A stretch of DNA of 57,533 bases, from contig DSEL01000186.1 of assembly GCA_011056645.1 (NCBI GenBank), positions 1-57,533 on the forward strand, written 5' to 3'. The translations under genes and the position numbers were made by a program. Positions 30,474 to 55,813 of the stretch are shown piece after piece. The DNA comes from Candidatus Sediminicultor quartus (GTDB lineage: Bacteria > Atribacterota > Phoenicimicrobiia > Phoenicimicrobiales > Phoenicimicrobiaceae). Numbering within the stretch: position 1 is the first letter of the stretch; the number at the start of each line of letters is the position of its first letter. The notes under the pieces are model-generated. The model ran no database searches and was not told where the DNA came from. It saw only the letters and a list, made by a program, of their open reading frames with translations.

Positions 30474-31850
30474 GTGCTTAGGATCAGAAATGCCCGGATT
30501 GTGAAAAATGAAGAGTTGAAAGAAGTAAATATATATGTTGAAAAGGGAAAAATAAAAGATATTGTACCGGGAGATAAGGCATTGCTTTTAGTTGAAAGAG
30601 AAATTGATGCCAAAGGCCATGTAGTATTTCCTGGCTTTATTGATTCCCACGTGCATTTTGATGATCCTGGATTTACAGAGAGAGAAGATTTTGAGACTGG
30701 GACTAAAAGTGCAGCAGCTGGCGGTATTACCACCATTATCGATATGCCCTGTACCTCTATTCCTCCGGTTACGAATGGTAAAAATTTTGATTACAAATTA
30801 AAGATAGTTAAACCAAAAGCCTATGTAGATTTTGCTTTCTGGGGAGGGATTACTCCGGAACAGATAGGATCGGGAGAATTCAAGAATAGTGTAAAAGAAT
30901 TAAAAGACAGGGGAGTTGTAGGAGTGAAGTTTTACACTATTTCCGGGATGGAACTCTATCCCAGGATGTCCATTCCCGATATGGATAAAGCCTTCAGAGT
31001 TCTCAAGGATTTAATGCTAGTTTGTGCGGTACATGCAGAGGATTATTATTTAGTAGAATATTATTCCCATCTTATGCAGGAAATGGGAAGAGAAGACCCC
31101 GAGAGTTGGTCTGAAGGAAGGACCTATGAAGCAGAGCCGGAAGCAATATGGTCGGTAGTGGGAATTACAAAAAAAGTTGGAAATAAACTTCATATTGTTC
31201 ATCTTTCTACCAAAGAAGGTTTAAATATTATTCGATGGGCGAAGTCTCAGGGAACGGATGTGACCGCTGAAACTTGCCCTCAGTATTTAGTTTTTACAGC
31301 AGAAGATTTTAACCAGATTGGTTCAATATTAAAAATCGCTCCACCATTACGCAAGGAAGAGGATAGGGAAGAACTGTGGAGAGGGTTAAAAGATGGTTCA
31401 ATTGATTTTATTTCCACCGACCATGCGGCAGGAAAATATCCGGAGGAAAAATCATCACCTAATATCTGGAAAAATTATGCTGGTATTCCTGGTGCTCAAT
31501 TGGCTGCTCCAACCTTAATTCATTTTGGTTATCATGGCGGTAGGTTAAAGTTAGGGGAGATTCAAAAATTAATGTCTGAGAATTCTGCTAAAAGGTACGG
31601 ACTTTTCCAGCAAAAAGGAGCTATTCAAGTTGGTTATGATGCTGATTTTACCATAATAGATCTGGATAAAGAATGGACTGTAGATCCATCGAAATTAATG
31701 AGCAAAGGAAAATACTCTCCCCTCTCCGGGAAAACTTTAAGAGGGAAAATATATATGACGATTATCCGTGGGGAATTAATATACAAGGAAGATGAAGGAA
31801 TAATTGGAGAAAAAGGAATCGGTGAATTGGTGGAAAGCAAGGAAAATTAA
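30474..31850 (+). CDS. Cyclic amidohydrolase (allantoinase/dihydropyrimidinase family)
   Basis: DSHVHF, AAAGGITT, carbamylated Lys (GVKF), VHAE, HIVH and TDHA motifs. GTG start after GAGGAG. Confidence 0.85.
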   Translation: MLRIRNARIVKNEELKEVNIYVEKGKIKDIVPGDKALLLVEREIDAKGHVVFPGFIDSHVHFDDPGFTEREDFETGTKSAAAGGITTIIDMPCTSIPPVTNGKNFDYKLKIVKPKAYVDFAFWGGITPEQIGSGEFKNSVKELKDRGVVGVKFYTISGMELYPRMSIPDMDKAFRVLKDLMLVCAVHAEDYYLVEYYSHLMQEMGREDPESWSEGRTYEAEPEAIWSVVGITKKVGNKLHIVHLSTKEGLNIIRWAKSQGTDVTAETCPQYLVFTAEDFNQIGSILKIAPPLRKEEDREELWRGLKDGSIDFISTDHAAGKYPEEKSSPNIWKNYAGIPGAQLAAPTLIHFGYHGGRLKLGEIQKLMSENSAKRYGLFQQKGAIQVGYDADFTIIDLDKEWTVDPSKLMSKGKYSPLSGKTLRGKIYMTIIRGELIYKEDEGIIGEKGIGELVESKEN

Positions 31851-32932: not shown

Positions 32933-32980
32933 AAGAGGGAAAAAAGAAATAATTATATAGCCGGGGAGGAAAAAATAGAG

Positions 32981-34216
32981 ATGAGTTACCTAAAAAAACT
33001 AAAATGCCTATTGTGCGGAAGGGAATATGATATTGGAGAGGTAAGATACAATTGTCCGGAATGTGGGGATGAAGGGATTTTAGAAATAATTTATGACTAT
33101 CCTAAGCTAAAAAAGGTTTTTAATCGGGAATCCCTCAAAAAAAATAAGGAATTTTCCATGTGGAGATACCTGCCTCTTTTACCGGTGGATAATCCTGCCA
33201 AAATTGGACCGTCAAAAGTTGGTTGGACTCCTTTATATGAAGCGAAAAGAATAAGAGAAGATCTAAGAATACCCAATCTATGGATCAAGGATGACGGGAG
33301 GAACCCCACTGCTTCTTTAAAAGACCGGCCGTCTGCTATAGCAATAGTAAAAGCCCGGGAATTGGGGGAGAAGATCGTTACCTGTGCCTCTACCGGCAAT
33401 GCTGCCTCATCACTGGCGGGAGCTGCTGCATCGGTAGGTTTAAAGAGTTACATTTTTGTTCCCCAGACCGCACCAAGTGCCAAAATTGCCCAACTTTTAG
33501 TATTTGGCTCAACTGTCTTTGCAGTAAGAGGAACCTATGATGAAGCTTTTGATCTGTCCATTGAAGCTACCAGAGAATTTGGCTGGTACAATCGAAATAC
33601 TGCTTTTAATCCCAATATGGTGGAAGGGAAGAAGACGGTTGCATTGGAAATTATCGAACAAATGAATTTTGAAGTTCCAGATTATATATTTGTACCGGTA
33701 GGAGACGGTTGTATCATCTCTGGAGTAGCCAAAGCTTACCATGATATGTTTTCTTTAGGCTTTATTGACCATTGCCCCAAATTGGTGGCTGTACAGGCAG
33801 AAGGATGTAAGCCGATTGTAGAGGCGGTAAATGGTGATGGAGAAGTAAAATTTGTGGAGCCGAATACCATTGCCGATAGCATTGCTGTAGGAATTCCCAG
33901 GAATCGACTGATGGCAGTAAGAGATATAAAAGAATCAAGAGGATTTGGTGTTGCAGTTAGTGATCAAGAAATATTGGAAGCGATTAAATATTTAGGTTCT
34001 AAGCAAGGAATTTTTGCCGAACCTGCGGGCTCTACTGCTTTTGCCGGAATGGTCAAAGCGCTAAAGGAGGGAAAAATCTCCAAAGGAGATAAAATTGTAG
34101 TATTAGTTACTGGAAATGGATTAAAGGACGTAGAAAGTGCTAAAAAAGCCGGGGGAGAGGCCCTGGTAATAGACCCCAATTTAGAAGCGGTAAAGGAGAT
34201 AATGAACAGAAAGTGA
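32981..34216 (+). CDS. Threonine synthase-like PLP enzyme (fold type II) with N-terminal Zn ribbon
   Basis: CLLC..CPEC, PTASLKDR, ASTGNA, VPVGDG and EPAGS motifs. Confidence 0.85.
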   Translation: MSYLKKLKCLLCGREYDIGEVRYNCPECGDEGILEIIYDYPKLKKVFNRESLKKNKEFSMWRYLPLLPVDNPAKIGPSKVGWTPLYEAKRIREDLRIPNLWIKDDGRNPTASLKDRPSAIAIVKARELGEKIVTCASTGNAASSLAGAAASVGLKSYIFVPQTAPSAKIAQLLVFGSTVFAVRGTYDEAFDLSIEATREFGWYNRNTAFNPNMVEGKKTVALEIIEQMNFEVPDYIFVPVGDGCIISGVAKAYHDMFSLGFIDHCPKLVAVQAEGCKPIVEAVNGDGEVKFVEPNTIADSIAVGIPRNRLMAVRDIKESRGFGVAVSDQEILEAIKYLGSKQGIFAEPAGSTAFAGMVKALKEGKISKGDKIVVLVTGNGLKDVESAKKAGGEALVIDPNLEAVKEIMNRK

Positions 34217-35337
34217 ATATTACGGAACAAAAAGAAATACAAGATCTTCTTCAAAAGCTTATTCGGATTAAAAGTATAAACCCTCCGGGAAACGAAAATC
34301 AAATTGCTAATTTTATAAAGAAATTTCTCTTAAAAAATAATATCCAATCCGAATTAGTTCCTTTAGAAGAAAGCCGGAGTTCGATTGTAGCAACAATTGA
34401 AGGAGAAGAGGAAAGAAATATTACACTTTGCGGGCATTTAGATACGGTAGCGGCAAAAGAAGAGGAGTGGACGAGACCTGCTTTCCAGGGATTAATCGAA
34501 AACGGGAAGATGTACGGCTTAGGTACATCAGATATGAAGGGTGGAGTGGCTGCCATTCTTTACGCAGCAGTACTTTTAAAAAGAAAGGGAATTGTTCCTA
34601 AAAAATCAATTCAATTAGCTCTTACGGCAGATGAAGAATGGGAATATAGAGGGGTAAAAAGTTTAATTGATGAGGGTTATTTTGACCGGACTGATTTTCT
34701 TATTATTGCTGAACCCTCTAACCTTCAAGTTTCTACCGGAGAAAAGGGAGAATTATGGATAAAAGCTAAATTTTTCGGGAAGTCCGCCCATGGATCCACT
34801 CCTGAGGTGGGGGTAAATACAATTATACCGGGAAGTGAGTTTGTAGTGAAAGTCACCGAAAGATGTGGGAAAATATTTGAAGCAAATCACTTTTGGGGCA
34901 AAAGTTCAATAAATATCGGACAGTTTCACGGAGGATCACAGGTAAATATTGTCCCTGATTATTCAGAAATACAACTAGATTTCAGGGTAATTTCAGATGA
35001 GGATAAAGAGAAAGCAGTGGAATTAGTGGTAATGGCGGGTGAAGAGATTGAAAAAAAGTATAAAGTGCGATTTGCGCAAGAGATTTTTAGTTATCATCCT
35101 CCTATTTTTACCAGTTCAGATAATCCTTATGTGGAAAAGTTTCGGCAGGTTTCCGGAGCAAAGGGGGTAATAATTACTAAATACTGCACTGATGGAGCGA
35201 CAATAATTCCAAGGAAGAGAATTCCTTTTATTATTTTTGGACCCGGGTATATTACCCAGGCTCATCAAAACGATGAATATATTGAATTGAAATCTCTTTA
35301 TCAAGCAGTAGATACCTATATAAAATTCTTAACATAA
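34213..35337 (+). CDS. M20 (ArgE/DapE/YgeY-like) metallohydrolase
   Basis: GHLDTV, DMKGG, DEE, AEPS and AHQNDE motifs. GTG start overlaps the upstream stop. Confidence 0.88.
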   Translation: MNITEQKEIQDLLQKLIRIKSINPPGNENQIANFIKKFLLKNNIQSELVPLEESRSSIVATIEGEEERNITLCGHLDTVAAKEEEWTRPAFQGLIENGKMYGLGTSDMKGGVAAILYAAVLLKRKGIVPKKSIQLALTADEEWEYRGVKSLIDEGYFDRTDFLIIAEPSNLQVSTGEKGELWIKAKFFGKSAHGSTPEVGVNTIIPGSEFVVKVTERCGKIFEANHFWGKSSINIGQFHGGSQVNIVPDYSEIQLDFRVISDEDKEKAVELVVMAGEEIEKKYKVRFAQEIFSYHPPIFTSSDNPYVEKFRQVSGAKGVIITKYCTDGATIIPRKRIPFIIFGPGYITQAHQNDEYIELKSLYQAVDTYIKFLT

Positions 35338-37011: not shown

Positions 37012-37051
37012 ATAAAAGAATAAAATTAGAACATAAAATAGGAGGTTTTCA

Positions 37052-38005
37052 ATGCGTAGTTTTTTAGGAAGAGATATCCTCTCTTTGAAAGATTTTGAGA
37101 GGGAAGATTTTGTTAGAATTTTTGAAGTTTGTAAAAAATTAGAACCTATTGCCAAGAATCGTAAAAACAGTAATATTCTGGCCGATAAAACTATGGTAAC
37201 CGCATTCTATCAACCAAGCACCCGTACCCGCTTGTCTCATGAAGCAGCCATGCATCGTCTTGGCGGCCATGTACTTGGTTTTGCGGATGCAAAAATGACC
37301 CGAGCGGGCGATTTCTATCAGGAAAGCATTAAAGATACTGTTAAAATGCTGGAATATTATGGTGACGTTATTGTAATGCGGCATTTTCAACAGGGCGCCC
37401 CGGCTGAGACAGCAAAATGGGCTAGCGTTCCTGTAATTAACGCCGGTGATGGTTGGGGAGAGCACCCTACCCAGGTTTTAACCGATCTATATACCATTCT
37501 ACAGGAAAAAGGTACTATTGATGGGTTGACTTTCCTCTGTATTGGCGATATGCGTATGCGCACGATGCATTCCATTTCCTATGCACTTACCCAATTTGAT
37601 GCCCAGGTTATTTACGTAGCCCCACCTGCAATGTCAATGACCGAAGAATTTAAAGCCGAGTTAAAAAATTACAACTTGCGTTTCAAGACAGCAGAGCATG
37701 TTGCTGATGTAATTAATGAAGCGGATGTTATCTACATGGAACCTGTTGTGCAGGCTGATTATACCAAATCTCGTGAAGATACAAAGTCAGACAAAGGCTT
37801 AACCCCTGATAATTACCGGGTAACTCGCGAACTTTTAGAGAAGAAAGCAAAACCCAATTCAATTATATTGCATTCTCTGCCGAGAATGGATGAACTGCCT
37901 CCAGACGTCGATATCACCCGACATGCACGTTATTGGCAGGAAGCCTTTAATGGAGTTGTTTTGAAAATGGCTTTGCTCGCATTAATTCTGGGTGCCGAAG
38001 AATAA
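37052..38005 (+). CDS. Aspartate carbamoyltransferase-like protein (altered acceptor site)
   Basis: STRTRLS, MRH, NAGDG, HPTQ and HSLPR are present; the aspartate-binding residues diverge (see findings). Confidence 0.8.
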   Translation: MRSFLGRDILSLKDFEREDFVRIFEVCKKLEPIAKNRKNSNILADKTMVTAFYQPSTRTRLSHEAAMHRLGGHVLGFADAKMTRAGDFYQESIKDTVKMLEYYGDVIVMRHFQQGAPAETAKWASVPVINAGDGWGEHPTQVLTDLYTILQEKGTIDGLTFLCIGDMRMRTMHSISYALTQFDAQVIYVAPPAMSMTEEFKAELKNYNLRFKTAEHVADVINEADVIYMEPVVQADYTKSREDTKSDKGLTPDNYRVTRELLEKKAKPNSIILHSLPRMDELPPDVDITRHARYWQEAFNGVVLKMALLALILGAEE

Positions 38006-38180: not shown

Positions 38181-40481
38181 ATGGATTATAGTACAGTTAA
38201 TAAACCAATAAAACGGATTGATGCCTATGAAAAAGTTACTGGAAAAGCCAAATTTGGTGCTGATCTTTTCTTTACCAATATGCTTTATGCCAAAGTTTTA
38301 CGAAGTAAATATCCCCATGCTCTAATTTTGAAAATTAACATCAAAAAAGCTCTGGCTTATCCGGGCGTAAAAGCAGTGATTACGGCGGATGATATTCCTA
38401 ATAATGAATTTGGAGTTATTGTTCAAAATCAACAAGTGTTAGCTCGACAACAAACTTTTTATAGCGGGGATGGCATTGCTGTCATTGCTGCCGAGACTAA
38501 AGAGTCAGCTGCAAAAGCTCTGGAGTTAATTGAAGTAGAGTATGAGGAATTACCGGGTATTTTTGACCCGGAAGAAACCGAGAAAAAAGATGCTCCTCTA
38601 ATCCATCCGGAGCTAGAAAATAATCAGGTGGTTCATCATCAGTTAAGAAAGGGAGATATTGAAGGGGGATTTACTCAGGCAGAGGTAATACTGGAAAGAG
38701 AATATACCACACAATTTGTAGAACACGCTTATATTGAGCCTGAGTCGCTCATCGCAGTCCCCCATGAACAAAATGCTTTAGTAACAATCTATGGTTCAAT
38801 TCAGAACCCTTTTTCCTGCCGAAATGCTGTGGCCAGCGTACTCAAGGTACCCTTGAATAAAGTGAGAATAATTCAGAATCATATGGGTGGATCATTTGGA
38901 GGCAAAGACGAAGTGATGTCTTCCATGGCTGCCCGGGCTGCCCTCCTGGCTCTAATAACCAACCAACCAGTCAAGATGGTTAATACCAGAGATGAGTCAA
39001 TTCTCGAAAGCTACAAACGCCATCCTTATAGGATGAAATACAAAGTAGGTGCCACCAAAGAAGGCAAGCTGATAGTAATGGAGATTAAGTGTTTGGCTGA
39101 TAGTGGAGCTTACGCCTGCCAGACTCCTTTTGTTACCTGGCGTTCAGTTGTCCAGGCTACCGGTCCCTACGAGCTGCCTAATGTGAAGACAGATACTTAC
39201 GGTTATTACACCAACAATATATATACCGGAGCAATGAGAGGTTATGGTTCCCCGCAGATTGTCTTTGCCCAGGAATCATTAATGGATGAGCTGGCCGAAG
39301 CACTACAGATGAACCCCATGGAGCTGCGTTTGAAAAATATCTATCATAATAATTCTATTACTGCCAGTGGACAGAAATTAGATAATCACCAGGTGAGTCT
39401 GGAAGAGGTTATTCATAAAGCGGTTAAAGTCAGTAATTATAAGGAGAAATATAGAGAATACAGCAAATCACAGCCAGGAGATAAAAAAAGAGGAATCGGT
39501 ATGGCTGTCAGTTTTAGAGGCTGTAGCCTGGGTGCTGAAGCAACCGATGCTGCAGGAGCCATAGTCGCCGTACAGCGTGACGGAAGTATCTTAATCTCCT
39601 GCGGATTAGCAGAAAATGGTGAAGGCTTAAAGACTGTTTTTACTCAGATAGCTGCCGAAGAATTAGGTGTGTACACTCAAAGGATTAACTATATGGAGGT
39701 TGATACTTCAGTATCTCCTGAAAGTGGGGCTACGGTTGCCTCCCGCAGTACTATATTAGGTGGCAATGCCGTAAAAAATGCTGCCTATCAATTAAAAGAA
39801 ACTCTTATTGAAATAGTCGCCGCTAAATTTAAAATTAGAACAGATCATTTGGATTTTAAGAATGAAAATATATATGATAAAAGTAAAAATCAAAAGATCA
39901 TTTCTTTTGATGAGGTTGTAAATTTAGCTGATCAGCAGGGAATATTTTTATCTGCTTATGGTTGGTACAAAGCTCCTGATATTTCCTGGAATGAAGAAAT
40001 TGGTCAGGGCAGACCCTATTTCACCTATGTTTATGGTTGTCAGATAGCAGAAGTGGAAGTTGATATCGCAACCGGTCAGGTAGAAGTATTAAAGATGACC
40101 GCTGCTCATGACGTGGGTAAAGCCATTAATCCTGCCTGCCTTAAAGGGCAGATCTACGGTGGCGTAATGATGGGCTTGGGTTATGGCATTATGGAGGAAT
40201 TAGAAAGCGAAGAAGGCTATATCAAAAATACTAACTTTGATGAATATCTAATTCCTACGGTAAAAGATATGCCGGAAATTATCCCGGTTATTATAGAAAA
40301 TCCCGATCCTCATGGTCCTTATGGAGCGAAATCTATCGGTGAACCAACTTTAGAACTGGGTGCCCCTGCCATTGCCAATGCAGTAGCTCAAGCAACCGGA
40401 AAAAGAATTAGGCATTTACCCCTTAATTTAGAACGGGTATTACTGGGATACTCTTTAAGAAAAGGTAAAACAAAGAAATGA
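38181..40481 (+). CDS. Xanthine dehydrogenase-family molybdopterin-binding subunit
   Basis: GGSFGGK, AMRGYG, SRST and KSIGE (catalytic Glu) motifs. Confidence 0.92.
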   Translation: MDYSTVNKPIKRIDAYEKVTGKAKFGADLFFTNMLYAKVLRSKYPHALILKINIKKALAYPGVKAVITADDIPNNEFGVIVQNQQVLARQQTFYSGDGIAVIAAETKESAAKALELIEVEYEELPGIFDPEETEKKDAPLIHPELENNQVVHHQLRKGDIEGGFTQAEVILEREYTTQFVEHAYIEPESLIAVPHEQNALVTIYGSIQNPFSCRNAVASVLKVPLNKVRIIQNHMGGSFGGKDEVMSSMAARAALLALITNQPVKMVNTRDESILESYKRHPYRMKYKVGATKEGKLIVMEIKCLADSGAYACQTPFVTWRSVVQATGPYELPNVKTDTYGYYTNNIYTGAMRGYGSPQIVFAQESLMDELAEALQMNPMELRLKNIYHNNSITASGQKLDNHQVSLEEVIHKAVKVSNYKEKYREYSKSQPGDKKRGIGMAVSFRGCSLGAEATDAAGAIVAVQRDGSILISCGLAENGEGLKTVFTQIAAEELGVYTQRINYMEVDTSVSPESGATVASRSTILGGNAVKNAAYQLKETLIEIVAAKFKIRTDHLDFKNENIYDKSKNQKIISFDEVVNLADQQGIFLSAYGWYKAPDISWNEEIGQGRPYFTYVYGCQIAEVEVDIATGQVEVLKMTAAHDVGKAINPACLKGQIYGGVMMGLGYGIMEELESEEGYIKNTNFDEYLIPTVKDMPEIIPVIIENPDPHGPYGAKSIGEPTLELGAPAIANAVAQATGKRIRHLPLNLERVLLGYSLRKGKTKK

Positions 40482-41362
40482 TATCTTATGAATTTTTGAC
40501 CACCCGAAAAATAGAAGAAGCCTTGAATTACTTAGACAAATTAACTAAGGTTCATATTTTAGCTGGCGGAACGGACTTTTTAGTTGACCTTTATAAAAAA
40601 AGCTCTCGCTTACCGGACTTTGATTACCTGTTAGATATAAGCAATATCTCGGAATTAAAAATTATTAATTTAAATAACAATTTTATAGAAATAGGGCCGC
40701 TGGTAACCCATTCCCGTTTGATCAATGAGCCGCTTATTAAAAATAATTTTCCGATAATAAAGGAAGCAGCTTGTACCATTGGTTCAACCCAGATACGTAA
40801 TCGTGGTACTATCGGAGGAAATATTTTAAATGCTTCACCGGCAGCAGATCTTCTACCTCCTCTCATCGCCTTAAGAGCTGAAGTAGAATTAACTTTCAGG
40901 AAAGGCAAAAGGGTACTACCTTTAGAAGCATTTTTAGCTGGTCCTTACAAGACCAAATTACAGTCCAATGAGCTACTGACTAAGATAAAAATACCTCTGC
41001 TTGGTGATAATTATTATAGTGATTTTAAAAAAATTGGCCGGAGAAAAGCCTTATCTATTGCCAGATTAAGTCTTGCCCTGATTACCAAAATAAATAAAGA
41101 AGGTATTTTCCAAGATACCAGAGTTGTACCAGGTTCAGCTACACCTTATCCCCAATCCCTTCCAGAGACCGAAAAAGCGGTTAATAGTAAATCGATATTT
41201 AATATTGATTTAGAAGAGATTGGTAAGATAATCAGTAAGGAAATGATTTCTATCACTGGAGAAAGATGGTCTACTCCTTACAAAGAACCGACTATTGCTG
41301 TTCTAGTTAAGAGAGCGCTGAAAAAAATTATTGGGGAGGCAAAGATCAATAAAAATGAATAA
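40478..41362 (+). CDS. Xanthine dehydrogenase-family FAD-binding subunit
   Basis: AGGTD, QIRNRGTIGGN, SPAAD and GRRKA motifs. Confidence 0.92.
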   Translation: MISYEFLTTRKIEEALNYLDKLTKVHILAGGTDFLVDLYKKSSRLPDFDYLLDISNISELKIINLNNNFIEIGPLVTHSRLINEPLIKNNFPIIKEAACTIGSTQIRNRGTIGGNILNASPAADLLPPLIALRAEVELTFRKGKRVLPLEAFLAGPYKTKLQSNELLTKIKIPLLGDNYYSDFKKIGRRKALSIARLSLALITKINKEGIFQDTRVVPGSATPYPQSLPETEKAVNSKSIFNIDLEEIGKIISKEMISITGERWSTPYKEPTIAVLVKRALKKIIGEAKINKNE

Positions 41363-41843
41363 GATTATAGTTACTTTCATGGTTAATGGCAAGGAAGTAA
41401 CCTTAAAAGTAAGCCCTAAAGAGCGTTTACTTGATACTTTAAGAGAACAATTAAAATTAACTGGAACCAAAGAAGGTTGTAGTGTTGGTGAATGCGGAGC
41501 CTGCACGGTTATCCTTGATGAAAAAGCAGTTTCTTCCTGTCTGGTTCTTACCGGGCAGATCGGAGGGAGTGAGGTTTTAACTATTGAAGGGCTAGAAACT
41601 AATGGAAAGCTTGATCCTTTACAACAAGCTTTTATTGATTATCATGCCATACAATGCGGCTTCTGTACCCCGGGGATGTTGATGTCCGCCAAAGCATTAC
41701 TTATGCACAATCCTCATCCCAGCCGAGAAGAGATTAAAACTGCTATAGAAGGTAATCTTTGTCGTTGTACCGGTTATGAACAAATTATCCAAGCGATTGA
41801 ATATTGTCAAGGGGACGGTTCTACTGACAATATTTCTATTTAA
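41355..41843 (+). CDS. Xanthine dehydrogenase-family [2Fe-2S] subunit
   Basis: GCSVGECGAC..C, QCGFCTPG and NLCRCTGY motifs. ATG at 41355. The C-terminal tail derives from a repeat. Confidence 0.93.
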   Translation: MNKIIVTFMVNGKEVTLKVSPKERLLDTLREQLKLTGTKEGCSVGECGACTVILDEKAVSSCLVLTGQIGGSEVLTIEGLETNGKLDPLQQAFIDYHAIQCGFCTPGMLMSAKALLMHNPHPSREEIKTAIEGNLCRCTGYEQIIQAIEYCQGDGSTDNISI

Positions 41844-41894: not shown

Positions 41895-43253
41895 ATGTCT
41901 TCTATATTAATTAAGAATATAAAAGAGATTGTAACTATGGATAGAGAAAGAACCAGATTAAAGAGTTACAGTCTTTTGATTAAAAATAATATAATCAGCA
42001 AAATTGCTCGTGATATAAAACTTGAAGCTGATAAGGTAATTGATGGTTCTGATTATTTTCTTTATCCTGGGTTGATAAATACCCATCACCACTTTTATCA
42101 AACTTTAACCAGAAATATTTCCCAGGTGCAAAATGTAGAGCTATTTAATTGGCTCAAATATCTTTATCCTATCTGGGCTCGCTTAACTCCCGAAGCAGTT
42201 TATTACAGTAGTCTGGTAGCTATGGGAGAACTTCTAAAAACCGGTTGTACTACTGCGGTGGATCAATTCTATGTTTTTCCCAAGGACCAGCCCAAAGAAC
42301 TGGTAGATGAAGAATTTAGAGCGGCTCAAGAAATTGGGATTCGATTTCATGGAAGCAGAGGCTCTATGTCTTTGAGCGAAAAAGATGGCGGATTGCCTCC
42401 GGATTCAGTAGTACAGACAGAAGAAGAGATTTTGAACGATTCTCAGCGGGTTATCGAAAAATTTCATGATTACCGGCCTTTTGCCATGCAAAGGGTGGTA
42501 TTATCCCCTTGTTCCCCGTTTTCGGTTACTGAAAATCTTTTGAAGGAATCGATTAAATTAGCTCGGAGTTATAAAGTAGAGAGCCATACCCATATAGCCG
42601 AAACCAAAGACGAAGATGATTTTTGTCAGGAAACTTTTGGTCTTCAACCATTAGATTATATGGAAAAAGTCGGCTGGTTGGGGAATGATGTTTGGTTTGC
42701 TCATTGTGTCCACCTGAATGAAAAAGAAATAAATTTATTGGCTGAAACAGGGACAGGAGTGGCGCATTGTCCGGTATCCAATCAGAAATTGGCTTCCGGA
42801 GCGGCGAATATTCCTTATATGTTAAAAAAGAATGTACCGGTGGGATTAGCAGTTGATGGCAGCGCCAGCAATGATTCTTCTAATATGATTGCTGAACTTA
42901 AAGCAGCTTTATTGATGCATCGATTAATTTATGGTATCTCCAGTATGTCTGCCGAAGAAGTGCTAAGTATGGCGACCAATGGTGGCCGTGATGTCCTTAA
43001 TCAGCCGGAGATTGGCAGTCTTGAAGAAGGAAAAGCGGCAGATATGTTTTTGATCAATGTAAAAAGATTAGGATTTGCCGGGGGTTTGCACGATTCTGTT
43101 TCTGCTCTGGTTACTTCCGGTGATTCCCAAATTGTGGATATTACGATAGTAAATGGCAGGATTGTAGTTCGTGATGGAAGATTGCTCTCTGTTAATGAAG
43201 ACAAAGTGGTGGAAAGGGCCAACAAGATTTCCCAAAAAATGATTGAAGGATAG
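41895..43253 (+). CDS. 8-oxoguanine deaminase/AtzB-like amidohydrolase
   Basis: NTHHHFYQ, PCSPFS, HTHIAE, AHCVH, HCPVSN and AVDGSASND motifs. Confidence 0.88.
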   Translation: MSSILIKNIKEIVTMDRERTRLKSYSLLIKNNIISKIARDIKLEADKVIDGSDYFLYPGLINTHHHFYQTLTRNISQVQNVELFNWLKYLYPIWARLTPEAVYYSSLVAMGELLKTGCTTAVDQFYVFPKDQPKELVDEEFRAAQEIGIRFHGSRGSMSLSEKDGGLPPDSVVQTEEEILNDSQRVIEKFHDYRPFAMQRVVLSPCSPFSVTENLLKESIKLARSYKVESHTHIAETKDEDDFCQETFGLQPLDYMEKVGWLGNDVWFAHCVHLNEKEINLLAETGTGVAHCPVSNQKLASGAANIPYMLKKNVPVGLAVDGSASNDSSNMIAELKAALLMHRLIYGISSMSAEEVLSMATNGGRDVLNQPEIGSLEEGKAADMFLINVKRLGFAGGLHDSVSALVTSGDSQIVDITIVNGRIVVRDGRLLSVNEDKVVERANKISQKMIEG

Positions 43254-43267
43254 AGGAGGGGAGAAAG

Positions 43268-44599
43268 ATGTTGATCGTCGGAAATGGAACAGTTCTTACT
43301 TTTGATAAAAATTCCCGGGTTATCTCTAAGGGCGGAGTAGTAATCGAGGAAGAGAGAATTTTGGCAGTCGGGGATACGGCAAAATTACTGATCAAATATC
43401 CTAAAGCCGCATTTAAAGATGTTCAAGGCAAGATAATAATGCCGGGTATGATTAATACTCATATGCACCTTTATAGCACTTTTGCTCGAGGTATGAACCT
43501 TAAAACTGAGCAACCACCTAAAAATTTTGTGGAAATATTAGAAAAACTATGGTGGAGATTAGATAAAATTTTAAACGAAGAAGATATATATTGCAGTGCT
43601 ATTTATGCTCTTTTAGATAGTGTTAAAAAAGGAACTACCACTATTTTTGATCATCATGCCAGCAGCAATCTTATCGATGGTAGTTTAGACATTATTACTG
43701 AAGCAGTCCGACAAACCGGTATTCGGGCAAATCTATCGTACGAGATTTCCGATCGGGATGGTCATGAAAAAGCTTTAGATGGGATCAGAGAAAACGAAAG
43801 ATTTATTAAAAAAGCACAGCAGGAAGGCAATAATTGCCTGGGAGGATTAATCGGACTTCATGCTTCCTTTACATTGAATAATGAGACTTTAACTGAAGTG
43901 GCTGCTCTGGCAGACAGGCTGAGAGTCCCTTTTCATATTCACGTTGCTGAGGGTAAAGCCGATTACTATGAAAGTAAAACCAGGGGTTATCAAGGGGTAG
44001 CCGAACGCTTAAATCGCTTTCATATCCTGCGACCCGGTACTTTGGCTATCCATGGAGTTTATCTTAAAGAAGAGGAATTAGAAGTTATCAAGGAGCACAA
44101 CAGTTACTTAATCCATAATCCAGAATCTAATATGGGTAATGCAGTGGGTACTGCTCCAATTAAAGCTGCCATGGATAAGGGTGTAATAGTAGGATTGGGG
44201 ACAGATGGTTATACCAGCGATATGTTTGAAAGTATTAAAGTAGCTAATCTATTACAAAAACACGATTCAGGTAATCCCCAGGCTGGCTGGGCAGAAGTCT
44301 TTAAGATAGTTTTTAAGAATAACTGTGAAATTGCATCCGGATTTTTTGGAGAAACTTTGGGCGTCCTTCAAGCTGGAGTCCCAGCGGATGTTATTGTGGT
44401 AGATTATTATCCGCCTACTCCTATTAACAGTGAAAATGCTTATTTCCATATTTTATTTGGTATAAGTGGAGATATGGTCGATACCACTATTGTCGGAGGT
44501 AAAATATTAATGGAAGATCGAGAGATATGTGGTATAGATTACCAAAGAATTACTAAAAGAGTAAGAGAACAAGCAGAGAAGTTTTGGAAACGATTTTAA
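43268..44599 (+). CDS. ssnA: SsnA-like aminohydrolase
   Basis: NTHMHLYSTFARG, DHHAS, GLHASFT, HIHVAE, HNPESNMGN and GTDG motifs. Confidence 0.85.
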   Translation: MLIVGNGTVLTFDKNSRVISKGGVVIEEERILAVGDTAKLLIKYPKAAFKDVQGKIIMPGMINTHMHLYSTFARGMNLKTEQPPKNFVEILEKLWWRLDKILNEEDIYCSAIYALLDSVKKGTTTIFDHHASSNLIDGSLDIITEAVRQTGIRANLSYEISDRDGHEKALDGIRENERFIKKAQQEGNNCLGGLIGLHASFTLNNETLTEVAALADRLRVPFHIHVAEGKADYYESKTRGYQGVAERLNRFHILRPGTLAIHGVYLKEEELEVIKEHNSYLIHNPESNMGNAVGTAPIKAAMDKGVIVGLGTDGYTSDMFESIKVANLLQKHDSGNPQAGWAEVFKIVFKNNCEIASGFFGETLGVLQAGVPADVIVVDYYPPTPINSENAYFHILFGISGDMVDTTIVGGKILMEDREICGIDYQRITKRVREQAEKFWKRF

Positions 44600-46452: not shown

Positions 46453-47994
46453 GTGACCTTGGATAATTCAGAAGGTTATGCAATCGAATTACGAGGAATT
46501 GTTAAGCGGTTTCCCGGTGTAATTGCTAATAACGGTATTGATCTCAAGGTTTGTCGTGGCGAGATTCATTGTCTTCTCGGAGAGAATGGCGCAGGTAAAA
46601 CTACTTTAATGCGTGTCCTTTATGGCCTCTATCAACCCGACGAAGGGGAGATTATCCTAAACGGCCAACCAATTCAAATGACCTCTCCTCGAACTGCACT
46701 TAATTACCATATCGGAATGGTACACCAACACTTCCGCCTTGTTCCTACGCTATCGGTGGAGGAGAACATTATTCTCGGTTTAGATGAGGGAACCGGTTTA
46801 TTTATGAATTTCCACAAGATAAGAGAAAAGATTTCATCTATCGCTCGAGAATATGGTCTACCGGTCGACTTGCAGGCAAAGATTTGGCAGTTAACTGTTG
46901 GTCAACAACAGCGGGTGGAAATCTTAAAGGCGCTTTATCGTAAGGTCAATATCCTGATCATGGACGAGCCAACAAGTGTCCTTACCCCCCAGGAGGTTGA
47001 TCAATTATTTACCACCTTACGTACCTTAGTTGATGACGGATTAACTATTATCTTCATTACTCACAAACTTGATGAGGTGATGCAGGTGAGTGACCGGGTG
47101 ACAGTACTGCGTAAGGGAAAGGTTGTAGCAAATCTCATTACTACCAAGACGGATAAACCAACTTTGGCCAAGCTAATGGTCGGTCGCGAGGTGGTCTTTC
47201 GTCTAAAGAAGAGCCCCTTGAAACAAAGAGAGAAGCTTCTTGAGGTAAATGACCTGCATGTATTGAACGATCGCGGACTCCCGGCTCTTCGTGGACTATC
47301 CTTTGATCTTTTCGGAGGAGAGATTCTGGGTATAGCCGGAGTATCAGGCAACGGGCAAACAGAACTCGCGGAAGTTATTACCGGGCTACGTAAGTCAACA
47401 AGGGGAAAAATATTATTAGCCAACAAAGAAGTTACTAATTATTCTGCGCGAGAAATGAACGATCTGCATGTTGCTCACATTCCGTCGGAGAGAATTAAGA
47501 TGGGAATTGTCCCTGCTCTTAGCATTCGTGAGAATCTGATTCTGAAAAAATATTGTCGACCTCCTTTTTCTCATAGAGAATTTCTTAACAACAAAGCAAT
47601 TGAAGATAATGCACGTTGCGCAATGTCTGATTTCCAAATAACTGCTCCGAGTTGTGAAACACCTGCAAAACTCCTCTCAGGAGGGAACATTCAAAAAGTA
47701 ATCCTGGCACGCGAACTATCCGAAAGACCTAATCTGATTGTTGCGGTGCATCCTACTTATGGTCTCGATATCGGTGCTACCGAACAGGTGCGGCAAACTC
47801 TCTTAGCACAACGGGAACAAGGTGCAGCCACTTTGCTCATCTCAGAGGATTTAGAGGAAATTATGACCCTGTCTGACCGGATTCTGGTCCTATTCAATGG
47901 TGAGGCAATGGGTATTCTCAATACAGAGAGAGTCGATATAGAGCAGATTGGTTTAATGATGGCTGGCACAAGGTACCATAAGGGAGAAGAATAA
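46453..47994 (+). CDS. Nucleoside/purine ABC transporter ATP-binding protein (duplicated NBD)
   Basis: GENGAGKT, GMVHQHF, MDEPT, LSGGNIQK and PTYGLD motifs. Confidence 0.93.
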   Translation: MTLDNSEGYAIELRGIVKRFPGVIANNGIDLKVCRGEIHCLLGENGAGKTTLMRVLYGLYQPDEGEIILNGQPIQMTSPRTALNYHIGMVHQHFRLVPTLSVEENIILGLDEGTGLFMNFHKIREKISSIAREYGLPVDLQAKIWQLTVGQQQRVEILKALYRKVNILIMDEPTSVLTPQEVDQLFTTLRTLVDDGLTIIFITHKLDEVMQVSDRVTVLRKGKVVANLITTKTDKPTLAKLMVGREVVFRLKKSPLKQREKLLEVNDLHVLNDRGLPALRGLSFDLFGGEILGIAGVSGNGQTELAEVITGLRKSTRGKILLANKEVTNYSAREMNDLHVAHIPSERIKMGIVPALSIRENLILKKYCRPPFSHREFLNNKAIEDNARCAMSDFQITAPSCETPAKLLSGGNIQKVILARELSERPNLIVAVHPTYGLDIGATEQVRQTLLAQREQGAATLLISEDLEEIMTLSDRILVLFNGEAMGILNTERVDIEQIGLMMAGTRYHKGEE

Positions 47995-49073
47995 TGAAGA
48001 GACATGTAGGTATTAAAATTGAGAGAAAACCGCTTGCCTCTGGACAGGAAGTGTTTTTTGTATCACTTCTGGCTATTCTTGCAGCATTCCTGGTAGCAGG
48101 AATATTCTTCCGGGTTTATGGCGTTTCTCCTATCAAAGCCTATCAGCTAATACTACATGGATCACTGGGAAGCAGATTTGGTTTAGCCGAAACAGTACGC
48201 AGAGCAATTCCTCTATTGCTCTGCGGAGTAGGATTAACCATTGCCTTTCGCGCCCTCTTTTGGAATATCGGTGCTGAGGGACAGCTCCTCATGGGAGCGG
48301 TTGCTGCCACTGGAATTGCTCTCTTTAGTGGGTTGCCGGATCCACTACTCTTACCGGCGATGTTTATTGGTGGATTTATTGGCGGAGCAATATGGGGATT
48401 TATTCCGGCTATCTTAAAGGTAATATTAGGATTAAACGATGTCATTACGACGCTAATGATGAATTATATTGCTATCTACTTTATAGAATGGTTAATCCAC
48501 GGTCCATGGAAAGGACCCTCTGCGCGCGGATTTGCCTATTCAGATACCTTTCCACGAGCTGCCTGGCTGCCGACTATCTACAATACACGCATCCACTGGC
48601 CAACATTAATGCTGGGGCTTTTTCTTGCTGTTATGATGTACGTAATGGTTACACATACCAGGAGTGGATTTGAGATTCGAGTTATCGGGGAAAATCCCGA
48701 TGCAGCAAAATTTGCCGGTATCAGCCAACTTAAGACCACCCTGCTTGTCATGTTGATCTCCGGAGGTTTTGCAGGCTTAGCCGGAGTTGGTGAGATAGCG
48801 GGTATTCATCTACGACTATTGGGACCGACTAATATCTCGATGGGGTATGGCTATACTGCAATCATCGTTGCCTGGCTGGCAAGGCGCAATCCTTTGGCGG
48901 TAATCATCACCTCATTTTTATTTGGCGCTATTATGACCGGAGGGGATGTAATTAAAGTATCGCTTGGACTACCCTTCCAGTTGATCAATGTATTTAACGG
49001 ATTAATATTATTTTTCCTTATCGGAAGTGAAATTATTCTTCGTTACAAAATATCCTTTTTATCGAGGAGGTAG
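47994..49073 (+). CDS. Nucleoside/purine ABC transporter permease
   Basis: WNIGAEGQ, TTLMMNY and GYGYTAIIVA motifs. Confidence 0.9.
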   Translation: MKRHVGIKIERKPLASGQEVFFVSLLAILAAFLVAGIFFRVYGVSPIKAYQLILHGSLGSRFGLAETVRRAIPLLLCGVGLTIAFRALFWNIGAEGQLLMGAVAATGIALFSGLPDPLLLPAMFIGGFIGGAIWGFIPAILKVILGLNDVITTLMMNYIAIYFIEWLIHGPWKGPSARGFAYSDTFPRAAWLPTIYNTRIHWPTLMLGLFLAVMMYVMVTHTRSGFEIRVIGENPDAAKFAGISQLKTTLLVMLISGGFAGLAGVGEIAGIHLRLLGPTNISMGYGYTAIIVAWLARRNPLAVIITSFLFGAIMTGGDVIKVSLGLPFQLINVFNGLILFFLIGSEIILRYKISFLSRR

Positions 49074-49075
49074 CT

Positions 49076-50005
49076 ATGGGTTGGGAAACATGGATAATTA
49101 CAACACTCAGCCGTTCTCTTGCTTATGGGACGCCACTTCTTTTGGGAACACTTGGTGAGATCTACGCGGAACGTTCAGGTGTATTGAATCTTGGTGTCGA
49201 GGGCATGATGATCATGGGGGCTTATTCTGCTTTCACCACTGCCTATATCACTAAAAATCCCTGGTTGGGGATCCTGATGGGTGCAGTTGTCGGTGGCGTC
49301 TTTTCTTTAATCCACGCTTTTACCAGCGTAACACTTAAAGCGAACCAGGTAATATCCGGACTTTCCCTTACCATGCTCGGTCTTGGTCTATCAGGTGTAT
49401 TAGGACGGGGTTGGGAGGGTAAGCCGCTTCCTGTACCGCTTCCCAAGATCACCATTTCGGGACTCTCCAGTATCCCTTTTTTGGGGCCTGCACTTTTCGA
49501 AAATCAGAATTTTATTGTTTATCTAACAATTCTTATTGTGCCTTTATTGTGGTATATACTCTATCGTACGAGAATCGGGATCACCATCCGTTCTGTAGGG
49601 GAGAGCCCTGCTACTGCCGACTCTTTAGGGATAAATGTTAATCGGGTACGTTATGTATGTGTACTTTTAGGAGGGATCCTCGCCGGTGTAGCAGGGGGAT
49701 ATCTTTCGGTTGCCTATCGACCAGCATGGACCGAGGGAATGACTGCGGGAATGGGATGGATTGTTATTGCTTTGACTATTTTTGCTTTTTGGAATCCGGT
49801 TAATGGTATGTTAGGAGCCTACTTGTTCGCCGCTCTTTATCATTTGTCGTATCGCCTACAGCCGTGGGTATCACCGGAATTGCTTAAAGCAATGCCTTAC
49901 GCATTTGCCATTCTGGTATTAATATTTGTCTCGCGTGGAACCTTACAAAAGCGGATGGGATCACCGGCTGCATTATCCTTACCTTACACCAGGGGAGAGG
50001 AGTGA
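49076..50005 (+). CDS. Nucleoside/purine ABC transporter permease
   Basis: ERSGVLNLGVEG, GESP and GMGWIVIAL motifs. Confidence 0.9.
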   Translation: MGWETWIITTLSRSLAYGTPLLLGTLGEIYAERSGVLNLGVEGMMIMGAYSAFTTAYITKNPWLGILMGAVVGGVFSLIHAFTSVTLKANQVISGLSLTMLGLGLSGVLGRGWEGKPLPVPLPKITISGLSSIPFLGPALFENQNFIVYLTILIVPLLWYILYRTRIGITIRSVGESPATADSLGINVNRVRYVCVLLGGILAGVAGGYLSVAYRPAWTEGMTAGMGWIVIALTIFAFWNPVNGMLGAYLFAALYHLSYRLQPWVSPELLKAMPYAFAILVLIFVSRGTLQKRMGSPAALSLPYTRGEE

Positions 50006-50306
50006 GTTCGATACTTTCTTTGAACGATTTGCTTTTTTCCAAAGTGTTTGTTAAATTTATAATGATGGTAAAATAAAAAAAAGAATAAGATCAAGAATAA
50101 GACGAACAATTCTTTACAAGATAATTAGGAAAATAATATAATTAAAAATCAAGAGAAAGCAGATTATTATTCGATATTCAATAATGGCAACAAATAATTC
50201 GAGTGTAGGAGGTGAGGTGGGTAATCCTGAATATAGGTTAAAGTAAGCAGTGAAAGTTGTAAAAATTAAAATGGCTGTTTCAACAGCCCAAAAAGGAGGT
50301 TACAAA

Positions 50307-51485
50307 ATGTCTGTTCAACGAATTAAAATCATGTTAATAGCTCTGTTACTGATAACAGTCATCTTCAGCTTTGCTTCATTTGTTATAGCTAAAGAGTACG
50401 TTCCCGGTACACCACTTAAGGTGGGATTCATCTATGTCGGACCTATTGGCGACTTGGGTTGGAGTAATGCACACGATGAAGCACGGAGAATCTGCGAGGA
50501 TACTTTCCCCTGGTTGGAGACGGTCTATGTAGAGAGTGTTGCTGAGGGAAGCGAGGGGCTTTATATTGACAAGCTAATTGTGGAAGAGGGTTGTGATGTG
50601 GTATTAACTACCAGTTTCGGCTTTATGGATGGGACACTTATTGCAGCCCAGAAATACCCGGATAAGATCTTTGCCCATTGCTCAGGTTTTAAACGTAATC
50701 CAAATCTAATGACCTACATGGCTGATTTTTACCAGATCTACTACCTGAATGGATTGATCGCCGGAGCGCTCACCAAAACTAATAAGACTGCCTATGCAGG
50801 TGCTTTCCCCATTCCCGAAGTAAAACGTCATATGGATGCTTTCGCTGTGGGTGTAAGGGAGACCAATCCGGAGGCTGAGTTGCATGTACGATGGATATAT
50901 GAGTGGTTCAGTCCCACAGCGGCCAAGGAGGCAGCCGAAGCCTTGCTCGCCGAGGGATGTGATGTATTTGCCTTTACTGAAGACTCGCCGACGGTCGTAC
51001 AGGTCGCTGCAGAAAGTGGTTTTCCATCCTTTGGACATTACTCACCGATGTACAAATTCAGTCCCGAATATGTCGTTTCCGGACAGATTGCCCACTGGGA
51101 AGCGATCTACCTTGATTTTCTTGCTAAAGTCTATGCCGGTGTCTATACAGCACATAACCTTACTAATGTAGACTACTGGTGGTTACTAAAGGAAAAGGCA
51201 GTAGAAATAGGAGCCGAGCCAGGTATGTTGATAAATCCCGCCTACGAGGATAAATTAAAAGGGAAATATGTAGATGATCCCGTCCTGGGAAAGATTAGCG
51301 TTTATGATCTGGTGATGAAGAGGTTGGAGCAGATGGCCGATCCATCGATGGTATTCGATCCGTTCAATGGTCCCATCTACGATCGTGACGGGAATCTGAA
51401 AGTTCCCGAGGGCTTACGAATGTCTGTATTTGAACTGACTACTATGGATTGGGCGGCGGATGGTATCGTCGGACCCTGGGAATAA
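50307..51485 (+). CDS. BMP-family ABC substrate-binding protein (purine/nucleoside)
   Basis: YVGPIGDLGWS, TSFGFMD, AFPIPEV and GHYSP motifs. ATG at 50307 after AAAAGGAGG. Confidence 0.9.
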   Translation: MSVQRIKIMLIALLLITVIFSFASFVIAKEYVPGTPLKVGFIYVGPIGDLGWSNAHDEARRICEDTFPWLETVYVESVAEGSEGLYIDKLIVEEGCDVVLTTSFGFMDGTLIAAQKYPDKIFAHCSGFKRNPNLMTYMADFYQIYYLNGLIAGALTKTNKTAYAGAFPIPEVKRHMDAFAVGVRETNPEAELHVRWIYEWFSPTAAKEAAEALLAEGCDVFAFTEDSPTVVQVAAESGFPSFGHYSPMYKFSPEYVVSGQIAHWEAIYLDFLAKVYAGVYTAHNLTNVDYWWLLKEKAVEIGAEPGMLINPAYEDKLKGKYVDDPVLGKISVYDLVMKRLEQMADPSMVFDPFNGPIYDRDGNLKVPEGLRMSVFELTTMDWAADGIVGPWE

Positions 51486-53887: not shown

Positions 53888-53917
53888 ATCTTTTTTGTCT
53901 CCTTTTTGATAGTTAAA

Positions 53918-55801: not shown

Positions 55802-55813
55802 AGAAACCTCTTT

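Follow-up and report, generated by a model that had tools for sequence, protein, structure and literature searches.

What does a protein annotated as an aspartate carbamoyltransferase (ATCase) do when the residues that should recognize aspartate have gone and its neighbors are genes of purine breakdown? The question is raised by a 317-residue protein encoded in a 57,533-nucleotide stretch of DNA from Candidatus Sediminicultor quartus (contig DSEL01000186.1, positions 1 to 57,533), the whole of which is called the window below. From its sequence, the protein can be filed as a new, uncharacterized subgroup of a class known since 2013, the “pseudo-ATCases” named by Barba, Dutoit, Legrain, and Labedan, who recognized three groups by motif and gene context (PMC4016543). 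A preliminary description of the window had proposed that the enzyme uses another carbamoyl acceptor and probably works in the catabolic direction. That proposal is supported by an invariant carbamoyl-phosphate site, a remodeled aspartate site, a separate canonical pyrB gene, and a set of purine-catabolic operons. The protein is very probably a catabolic carbamoyltransferase in purine breakdown that feeds carbamate kinase, and an Nα-specific version of that enzyme is, by a modest measure of confidence, the best explanation.

Carbamoyl-phosphate and Aspartate Sites

In ATCase, R167 binds the α-carboxylate of aspartate, and R229 and K84 are ligands of the β-carboxylate. The RxQxER motif (R229, Q231, and R234) serves both aspartate binding and domain closure, and S80 and K84 of the 80s loop are supplied by the adjacent chain. 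The pseudo-ATCase was aligned with Escherichia coli PyrB (NC_000913) and with the Pyrococcus abyssi ATCase (1ml4), and 61 orthologs were aligned with 51 canonical ATCases. Conservation of each residue was counted over 211 distinct orthologs with 74-98% identity.

The carbamoyl-phosphate half of the active site is intact, as the preliminary description had stated. STRT and HPTQ are present (Table 1), the R167 equivalent (R170) lies in MRT at residues 169-171, the R105 equivalent lies in VMRH at residues 108-111, and the carbamoyl-phosphate site is invariant in the 211 orthologs. The two substrate loops were also read correctly. In the 80s loop, GDFYQE (residues 86-91) stands where PyrB has its KKGE loop; S80 is replaced by R84, K84 by Y89, and G85 by Q90, D87 is inserted, and the sole variation is F or W at position 88. 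In the 240s region, YMEPVVQ (residues 228-234, nucleotides 37733-37753) takes the place of YMTRVQ, with T228 replaced by E230, R229 by P231, and R234 by D236. Outside these loops, E50 is replaced by Q54.

The earlier claim that the aspartate-recognition residues are missing stands for R229 and K84, whereas for Q231 it depends on the aligner: MAFFT in automatic mode inserts one residue and keeps Q234 opposite Q231, and L-INS-i places V233 there. The same residue losses appear in all three comparisons. In the L-INS-i alignment of 61 orthologs against 51 canonical ATCases, the positions of E50, S80, K84, G85, T228, R229, Q231, R234, and P266 are fixed within each group and differ between the groups. 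By alignment, then, all PyrB residues that bind aspartate or lock the closed state are replaced, with the alignment-dependent status of Q231 as noted, and all carbamoyl-phosphate ligands are kept.

The replacements represent a selected new pocket, neither drift nor decay, because the new residues are themselves invariant or nearly so: T83, R84, G86, Y89, Q90, E91, E230, Q234, D236, Y237, and S275 are found in all 211 orthologs, D87 in 210, and P231 in 208. Invariant acidic residues (D87, E230, and D236) have appeared in the same two loops that lost the β-carboxylate ligands.

Fold, Annotation, and the Canonical pyrB

The protein contains the Pfam domains OTCace_N (PF02729) and OTCace (PF00185), and its closest solved structure is the P. 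abyssi ATCase bound to N-phosphonacetyl-L-aspartate (PALA) (1ml4, E 8e-74). An AlphaFold2 model, built on an input alignment of 40 sequences and informative about the fold only, has a mean pLDDT of 91 and a pTM of 0.91, and its confidence is low only in two loops (80s and 240s), which are the mobile substrate loops in ATCase. All top Foldseek matches to this model are ATCase chains (TM 0.85-0.91); TM is 0.88-0.91 against ATCase structures and ∼0.9 against PALA-bound ATCases. We know of no solved pseudo-ATCase structure.

The ATCase model TIGR00670 scores the pseudo-ATCase at 265.3 bits against a cut-off of 236.95, and hence all sources name the paralog aspartate carbamoyltransferase. This score and the annotations made from it are what would favor a genuine second ATCase, whether biosynthetic or acting catabolically on carbamoyl-aspartate. 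Such a function is scarcely credible given that R229, K84, R234, S80, and E50 are all replaced, that no pyr genes are adjacent, and that the score for a second ATCase model, NF002032, is 233.2 bits, below its cut-off of 263. The tree position also speaks against it. A tree of 100 rows, rooted on genes resembling ornithine carbamoyltransferase (OTC) and made by the quick FastTree method without bootstraps, places all 51 canonical ATCases in one derived clade (support value 99), and the query clade (100) is separate and long-stemmed, within a basal grade of highly diverse non-canonical sequences. The specifically catabolic variant, an ATCase degrading carbamoyl-aspartate, was rejected on the same residue losses and on the canonical copy in the genome.

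In the host genome (2.25 Mb, 96.6% complete), TIGR00670 has matches at four places: the pseudo-ATCase, the second carbamoyltransferase of the window, and genes on contigs C6 and C139. The C139 match is OTC-like and scores below the ATCase cut-off. The C6 gene is canonical pyrB (367-368 bits for TIGR00670, 323 bits for NF002032), and its product carries K84, TRVQRER, and HPLPR. Of five Anaerolineae genomes with the paralog, four likewise have a canonical pyrB (356-372 bits).

The sole carbamate kinase gene of the host genome (371 bits) lies directly upstream of canonical pyrB on C6 (L007:8814-10806). The pair is preceded by an IclR regulator and flanked by genes for an ATP-binding cassette (ABC) transporter. 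A search with TIGR01369 gave no carB in the host genome, which is 96.6% complete; the carbamoyl phosphate that pyrimidine synthesis requires may therefore be supplied by carbamate kinase or by the catabolic carbamoyltransferases.

Gene Cluster and the Reductive Urate Pathway

The anaerobic reductive urate (2,8-dioxopurine) pathway was worked out in two studies from 2025 (Li et al., 10.1101/2025.05.19.654654; Liu et al.). An enzyme of the xanthine dehydrogenase (XDH) type reduces urate to 2,8-dioxopurine, YgfK reduces the ring, and SsnA, the marker enzyme of the pathway (10.1101/2025.05.19.654654), opens it to ureidomethyl-hydantoin. HyuA then yields 2,3-diureidopropionate. YgeW releases one of the ureido groups as carbamoyl phosphate, from which YqeA makes ATP, YgeY hydrolyzes the other ureido group, and YgeX forms pyruvate from 2,3-diaminopropionate. 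Li et al. scored as “YgeW” any protein with PF00185 in the vicinity of SsnA (10.1101/2025.05.19.654654, Figure 3 legend), so that an ATCase-derived paralog was not told apart in that count.

The pseudo-ATCase gene sits in a co-directional cluster whose genes are listed in Table 1, with a Bmp-type ABC transporter further downstream. The cyclic amidohydrolase, which scores below the cut-offs of the other hydantoinase and dihydroorotase models, is probably the ring-opening enzyme. The YgeW-like protein is below all NCBIfam cut-offs, and its motifs fit the YTCase signature (PMC4016543, Table 1). No YgeX was found in the host genome, where the best match, the ThrC-like enzyme of the cluster, reaches 59 bits against a cut-off of 276; this pyridoxal phosphate (PLP) enzyme is a candidate to stand in for the missing diaminopropionate ammonia-lyase. 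The CysK-like protein is kept at 57-92% identity in many such clusters and adjoins the pseudo-ATCase in those of Atribacteria.

Table 1. Positions of genes and sequence motifs in the window
Feature	Position	Strand	Remarks
Cyclic amidohydrolase (allantoinase/hydantoinase type)	30474..31850	+	TIGR03178, 400 bits vs 358
YgeW/OTC-like second carbamoyltransferase, 327 aa	31949..32932	+	STRTR, HPMQ, HALP
ThrC-like fold-type II PLP enzyme	32981..34216	+	PALP, 261 bits
M20 ArgE/DapE-family deacylase, YgeY-like	34213..35337	+	TIGR01910, 259 vs 218; NF009555 (YgeY), 182 vs 321
CysK-like fold-type II PLP enzyme, 488 aa	35545..37011	+	Weak PALP match, 40 bits; long extensions
Shine-Dalgarno AGGAGG	37040..37045	+	6 nt 5' of ATG at 37052; read from sequence
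Pseudo-ATCase gene, 317 aa	37052..38005	+	Carbamoyl-phosphate site intact, second-substrate site remodeled; Pfam, hidden Markov models, AlphaFold2
STRTR, residues 56-60	37217..37231	+	Phosphate-binding motif for carbamoyl phosphate; aligns with PyrB S52-R56; invariant in 211 orthologs
80s loop T-R-A-G-D-F-Y-Q-E, residues 83-91	37298..37324	+	Replaces S80...K83-K84-G-E; 1 or 2 residues longer
HPTQ, residues 138-141	37463..37474	+	Carbamoyl-phosphate motif, intact
E-P-V-V-Q-A-D-Y, residues 230-237	37739..37762	+	Replaces ATCase T-R-x-Q-x-E-R motif of 240s region
H-S-L-P-R, residues 274-278	37871..37885	+	Replaces HPLPR; P266 to S275, S275 invariant in 211 orthologs
XDH-type molybdenum hydroxylase, three subunits (Mo, FAD, 2Fe-2S)	38181..41843	+	
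8-Oxoguanine-deaminase-family amidohydrolase	41895..43253	+	NF006055, 606 bits vs 532
SsnA	43268..44599	+	NF005540, 597 bits vs 444
Bmp/PnrA-type nucleoside/purine ABC transporter (ATPase, two permeases, binding protein)	46453..51485	+	

Another part of the pathway gene set lies elsewhere in the genome. A full-length YgfK (1054 residues; 1414 bits vs 835) is encoded on contig C69 (L117:1440-5986), followed by two subunits, FAD-binding and 2Fe-2S, of another molybdenum hydroxylase, which is probably the urate-reducing XdhD/YgfM-type enzyme and distinct from the XDH of the window. With SsnA and XDH in the window and YgfK on C69, these three members of the reductive urate gene set are present in the host. 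A reductase of the F420/luciferase type has been reported from Chloroflexota clusters (10.1101/2025.05.19.654654); none was found in the host genome, which has YgfK instead. In five Anaerolineae genomes with the operon, SsnA is above cut-off in all five, elsewhere on the chromosome, and YgeY and YgeX are each above cut-off in one. Taken together, the operon looks like the lower half of the reductive urate pathway, in which a second phosphorolysis would replace the hydrolase and other fold-type II PLP enzymes would replace YgeX.

Downstream of the purine cluster, on the minus strand (52844-57223), are SelD-like (AIRS domains) and SelB genes and a 469-residue open reading frame (ORF), possibly SelA, in keeping with selenium-dependent molybdenum hydroxylases in the pathway. 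In a sister Atribacteria genome (L104:2742-3683), the cluster includes a carbamate kinase gene, placed between the YgeW-like gene and the ThrC-like one. The corresponding position of the window (32932-32981) is an intergenic gap of ∼48 nt, and carbamate kinase seems to have been lost from this cluster.

Neighbors in Orthologous Loci

The window proteins and carbamate kinase were mapped by tblastn onto 82 orthologous loci, many of them on contigs that end early, which makes the counts lower bounds. An OTC/YgeW-like gene is adjacent to the paralog in 67 of the 82 loci and carbamate kinase in 60, both of which support the earlier suggestion of a catabolic yield of carbamoyl phosphate. A GntR regulator (55 loci), 8-oxoguanine deaminase (43), adenine deaminase (37), a ThrC-like PLP enzyme (43), and a CysK-like one (16) are also found near the paralog, as are XDH (∼10), SsnA (6), and an M20 enzyme (5), and in ∼40 loci a Bmp-type ABC transporter follows the carbamoyltransferase and kinase genes. 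The usual order in Anaerolineae is 8-oxoguanine deaminase, adenine deaminase, GntR, ATC-like, OTC-like, and carbamate kinase, and then binding protein and ABC transporter, ThrC-like PLP enzyme, family 2 glycosyltransferase (GT2), and CysK-like PLP enzyme. In Thermanaerothrix solaris, the two deaminases are above their equivalog cut-offs (712 vs 532 and 504 vs 472).

The partner carbamoyltransferase is of two types: that of the window has HPMQ/HALP, and those of most Anaerolineae have HPFQ/HPLP. The signature HDLP of DPTCase would have tied the pair of carbamoyltransferases to diaminopropionate, and it is absent from the partners, which have HPLP (59), HCLP (4), or HALP (3), with HPFQ or HPMQ.

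Several other arrangements were noted. One genome of the same family (G009, locus L102) has a cluster without the pseudo-ATCase, in which two different OTC/YgeW-like genes accompany carbamate kinase; there, too, two carbamoyltransferases occur together, the second being another enzyme. Five Anaerolineae loci (L009:11014-15060, L044, L051, L076, and L079) have one or two large ORFs without a Pfam match (695 and 651 residues) between or beside the ATC-like and OTC-like genes. The GT2 gene (PgfS-like; L030:19413-20378 and 20 other loci), which separates the two PLP genes in the purine operon of Anaerolineae, is conserved, with 58-76% identity between loci, and a role for it in purine catabolism is not obvious.

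This GT2 gene, together with the transcarbamylases known from biosynthetic clusters, such as DPTCase for viomycin and zwittermicin, might point to an anabolic enzyme that takes part in making a natural product or cofactor. An anabolic role, or one as a non-catalytic binding protein, is nonetheless highly improbable: the adjacent genes, under a GntR regulator, encode purine deaminases, carbamate kinase, and a transporter for uptake, and the catalytic residues of the carbamoyl-phosphate site are all invariant.

The GT2 gene and the two uncharacterized PLP enzymes, which are unexplained members of the operon, would also leave room for some other ureido compound as the substrate, for example a ureido acid derived from purines or nucleosides and imported by the adjacent ABC transporter. 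Distant relatives with TRAGD-type loops occur in differing contexts (creatininase and serine hydroxymethyltransferase; an HMGL-like protein and an aminotransferase; alcohol dehydrogenase), which suggests a versatile scaffold. The orthologous group itself, however, is always found in purine-deaminase, XDH, or SsnA contexts, with SsnA in five of five genomes, and catabolism of another such compound is quite improbable. Transfer of a function from the distant relatives (36-50% identity) was rejected because their contexts are heterogeneous.

Proposed Reaction and Regiochemistry

The pseudo-ATCase is proposed to be an ATCase-derived carbamoyltransferase that is catalytically active and no longer uses aspartate. 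It would convert a ureido acid from purine breakdown and phosphate to an amine and carbamoyl phosphate, from which carbamate kinase, with ADP, would form ATP, NH3, and CO2. With the YgeW-like and ATCase-derived enzymes side by side before carbamate kinase, both ureido groups could be harvested as carbamoyl phosphate, for a yield of up to 2 ATP per urate. The catabolic direction is suggested by the immediate pairing with carbamate kinase and by the precedent of Rxyl_2847 from Rubrobacter xylanophilus, a ureidoglycine carbamoyltransferase (UGTCase) that phosphorolyzes allantoate to ureidoglycine and carbamoyl phosphate (PMC4016543).

The nature of the substrate is suggested by the pocket. Because the R167 equivalent is kept, R229 and K84 are replaced, and acidic D87, E230, and D236 are introduced, the substrate would be an Nα-carbamoyl amino acid with a cationic or hydrogen bond-donating side chain. 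The likeliest candidate is 3-amino-2-ureidopropanoate (Nα-carbamoyl-2,3-diaminopropionate), which corresponds to carbamoyl-aspartate with an ammonium group instead of the β-carboxylate, or, failing that, 2,3-diureidopropionate, attacked at its 2-ureido group. According to Liu et al., YgeW removes the 3-ureido group to leave 3-amino-2-ureidopropanoate, which would be a natural substrate for an Nα-specific second enzyme. N-carbamoyl-β-alanine was rejected as a substrate because it is without the α-carboxylate and keeps the distal one, the opposite of a pattern in which R167 is kept and R229 lost.

The opposite regiochemistry must also be considered. Here the enzyme would act on the 3-ureido group of albizziin to give 2,3-diaminopropionate and carbamoyl phosphate, with the 2-ureido group taken by the YgeW-like partner. 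The operon evidence fits this equally well, albizziin is the YgeW product reported by Li et al., and D87, E230, and D236 could hold the α-ammonium of albizziin while R170 held its carboxylate. Yet the known carbamoyltransferases specific for side-chain nitrogens (OTCase, PTCase, DPTCase, and DBTCase) are without exception members of the OTCase branch (PMC4581275), not of the ATCase branch, whose precedent, UGTCase, attacks an α-ureido group. Retention of R167 with loss of R229 also suits an Nα-carbamoyl acid better, and the reversed assignment is judged unlikely.

Several observations weigh against an Nα-specific catabolic enzyme of the reductive urate pathway. Li et al. found that YgeW removes the 2-ureido group to give albizziin (10.1101/2025.05.19.654654), and the order of ureido cleavage is an open question according to a commentary (PMC12990295), which also raises the possibility that the pathway intermediates are D-configured, whereas ATCase binds L-aspartate. 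The Atribacteria cluster retains an M20 hydrolase, implying that the pseudo-ATCase is not strictly needed, and one Anaerolineae locus (L010) lacks a YgeW-like gene and has a different M20 enzyme beside the paralog, so that the logic of partners alone cannot fix which ureido group is taken. The carbamate kinase of the host lies outside the window cluster, adjoining canonical pyrB. Within the host's class, the paralog is patchy (6 of 42 genomes), and 10 of 14 SsnA-positive genomes are without it; SsnA is present in four of the six genomes with the paralog and in 10 of the 36 without, a weakly positive association, descriptive only, among fragmented, related metagenome-assembled genomes (MAGs). 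A genome of the same genus (L097:573-4391) has a syntenic cluster in which the CysK-like gene is followed after 58 bp by the Mo subunit of XDH. The pseudo-ATCase is precisely absent from it, a presence/absence polymorphism within the genus.

A bolder form of the Nα-specific proposal is offered tentatively, as possible but short of probable: the protein may be an Nα-carbamoyl-2,3-diaminopropionate phosphorylase, an activity without an EC number. With this enzyme and the YgeW-like one, the anaerobic urate pathway would give two carbamoyl phosphates, and with them two ATP, from each purine in several hundred species of Anaerolineae and also, by horizontal transfer, in Atribacteria. If this is true, the acid-lined pocket would independently favor 3-amino-2-ureidopropanoate over albizziin, settling the dispute between the 2025 studies.

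Distribution and Transfer

Close orthologs (74-83% identity) are spread over several hundred species, most of them Anaerolineae, and at least 586 confirmed stretches came from a scan that took one genome for each species. The members of the query's 90% cluster are named Candidatus Atribacteria, and the window has a G+C content of ∼36%. The next relatives, at 74-84% identity, are nearly all Anaerolineae, including Pelolinea, Anaerolinea, Longilinea, and the cultured T. solaris, whose ortholog is 78% identical. Horizontal transfer is the simplest reading of this spread between phyla: the Atribacteria paralog shares 74-82% identity with those of five Anaerolineae genomes, but canonical PyrB proteins from this set of genomes share only 45-50%. 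Near-identical operons also appear in MAGs labeled Phycisphaerales, Verrucomicrobiia, Eisenbacteria, Thermotogae, and Spirochaetota (L036, L019, L020, L057, L064, L075, L090, and L093), which reflects either mis-binning or a wider horizontal spread of the module.

Relation to Known Carbamoyltransferases

Compared with E. coli PyrB (EC 2.1.3.2), the pseudo-ATCase has the same fold (TM ∼0.88, 34-41% identity) and the same carbamoyl-phosphate ligands (S52, T53, R54, T55, R105, H134, and Q137), along with R167 and L267. It differs in having no pyrI or pyr context and in being paired with carbamate kinase.

Like the pseudo-ATCases already described (PMC4016543), it is an ATCase-annotated paralog beside a genuine pyrB, keeps STRT and HPTQ, has lost RxQ, has H[ST]LP in place of HPLP, and branches basal to the canonical ATCases. 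HSLP is the signature of groups 2 and 3 (PMC4016543, Table 1), and the group 2 protein of Nocardioides sp. JS614 also has a ygeW homolog, xdhABC, and hyuA as neighbors. The 240s motif E-P-V-V-Q (P-V-V or V-V-Q at R230-Q232) fits none of the groups, which have AIA, AIS, or SIA (group 1), GX[SC] (group 2), and VXP (group 3). The Anaerolineae/Atribacteria subgroup lies outside the sampling of that study and is set apart from the three groups by published motifs only. Literature on the pathway intermediates, pseudo-ATCases, and UGTCase yielded no paper that characterizes it.

UGTCase is a functional parallel to consider, as an ATCase-derived, carbamate kinase-linked enzyme of purine catabolism that phosphorolyzes the α-ureido group of a diureido acid. 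Its substrate, allantoate, is one carbon shorter than 2,3-diureidopropionate, its one-carbon homolog (PMC12990295). A UGTCase like Rxyl_2847, with the neighboring cyclic amidohydrolase acting as allantoinase, would fit the same broad pseudo-ATCase class, the association with carbamate kinase common to both, and the score of that neighbor above the TIGR03178 allantoinase cut-off. The residues and the setting differ, however. The reviewed UGTCase model retains K106 in the 80s loop, with S258 and K261 in the 240s region (PMC4581275), and here these regions have D87 and Y89, and E230, P231, and D236; by the criterion of the 80s-loop lysine, the pseudo-ATCase is not a UGTCase. The UGTCase motifs AIA and HPLA also differ from EPVVQ and HSLP. 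Moreover, UGTCase belongs to the aerobic uricase/allantoin route, whereas this host is anaerobic, has SsnA and YgfK such that urate takes the reductive route, and has no uricase context, and the fold-type II PLP enzymes of the operon suit β-substituted alanines rather than ureidoglycine. The allantoate function is accordingly rated very improbable.

The Nα-specific enzyme proposed here would share with YgeW and YgeY of E. coli and Clostridium the stage at which both ureido groups of 2,3-diureidopropionate are removed, and YgeW is likewise coupled to carbamate kinase for ATP. YgeW, however, belongs to the knotted AOTCase/YTCase branch and the pseudo-ATCase to the ATCase branch. The M20 enzyme YgeY uses hydrolysis, whereas the pseudo-ATCase appears to carry out the same step by phosphorolysis.

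Implications

Pseudo-ATCases as a class date from 2013; what has so far gone undescribed is this subgroup, its position in the pathway solved in 2025, and its likely substrate. Several hundred species are counted as having a pyrimidine-synthesis enzyme that appears not to be one, and reconstructions would miss an ATP-yielding step of purine fermentation. For the study of the enzymes, the ATCase-derived and YgeW-derived proteins form a natural pair that could probe the order of ureido-group cleavage. As a case of evolution, the exchange of cationic aspartate ligands for acidic residues next to an unchanged carbamoyl-phosphate site would be a clear example of a change in specificity. Feeding a single carbamate kinase from two carbamoyltransferases would bring twice the substrate-level ATP gain from the reductive urate pathway, which would matter for energy-limited bacteria of the subsurface and of digesters, such as Atribacteria and Anaerolineae.

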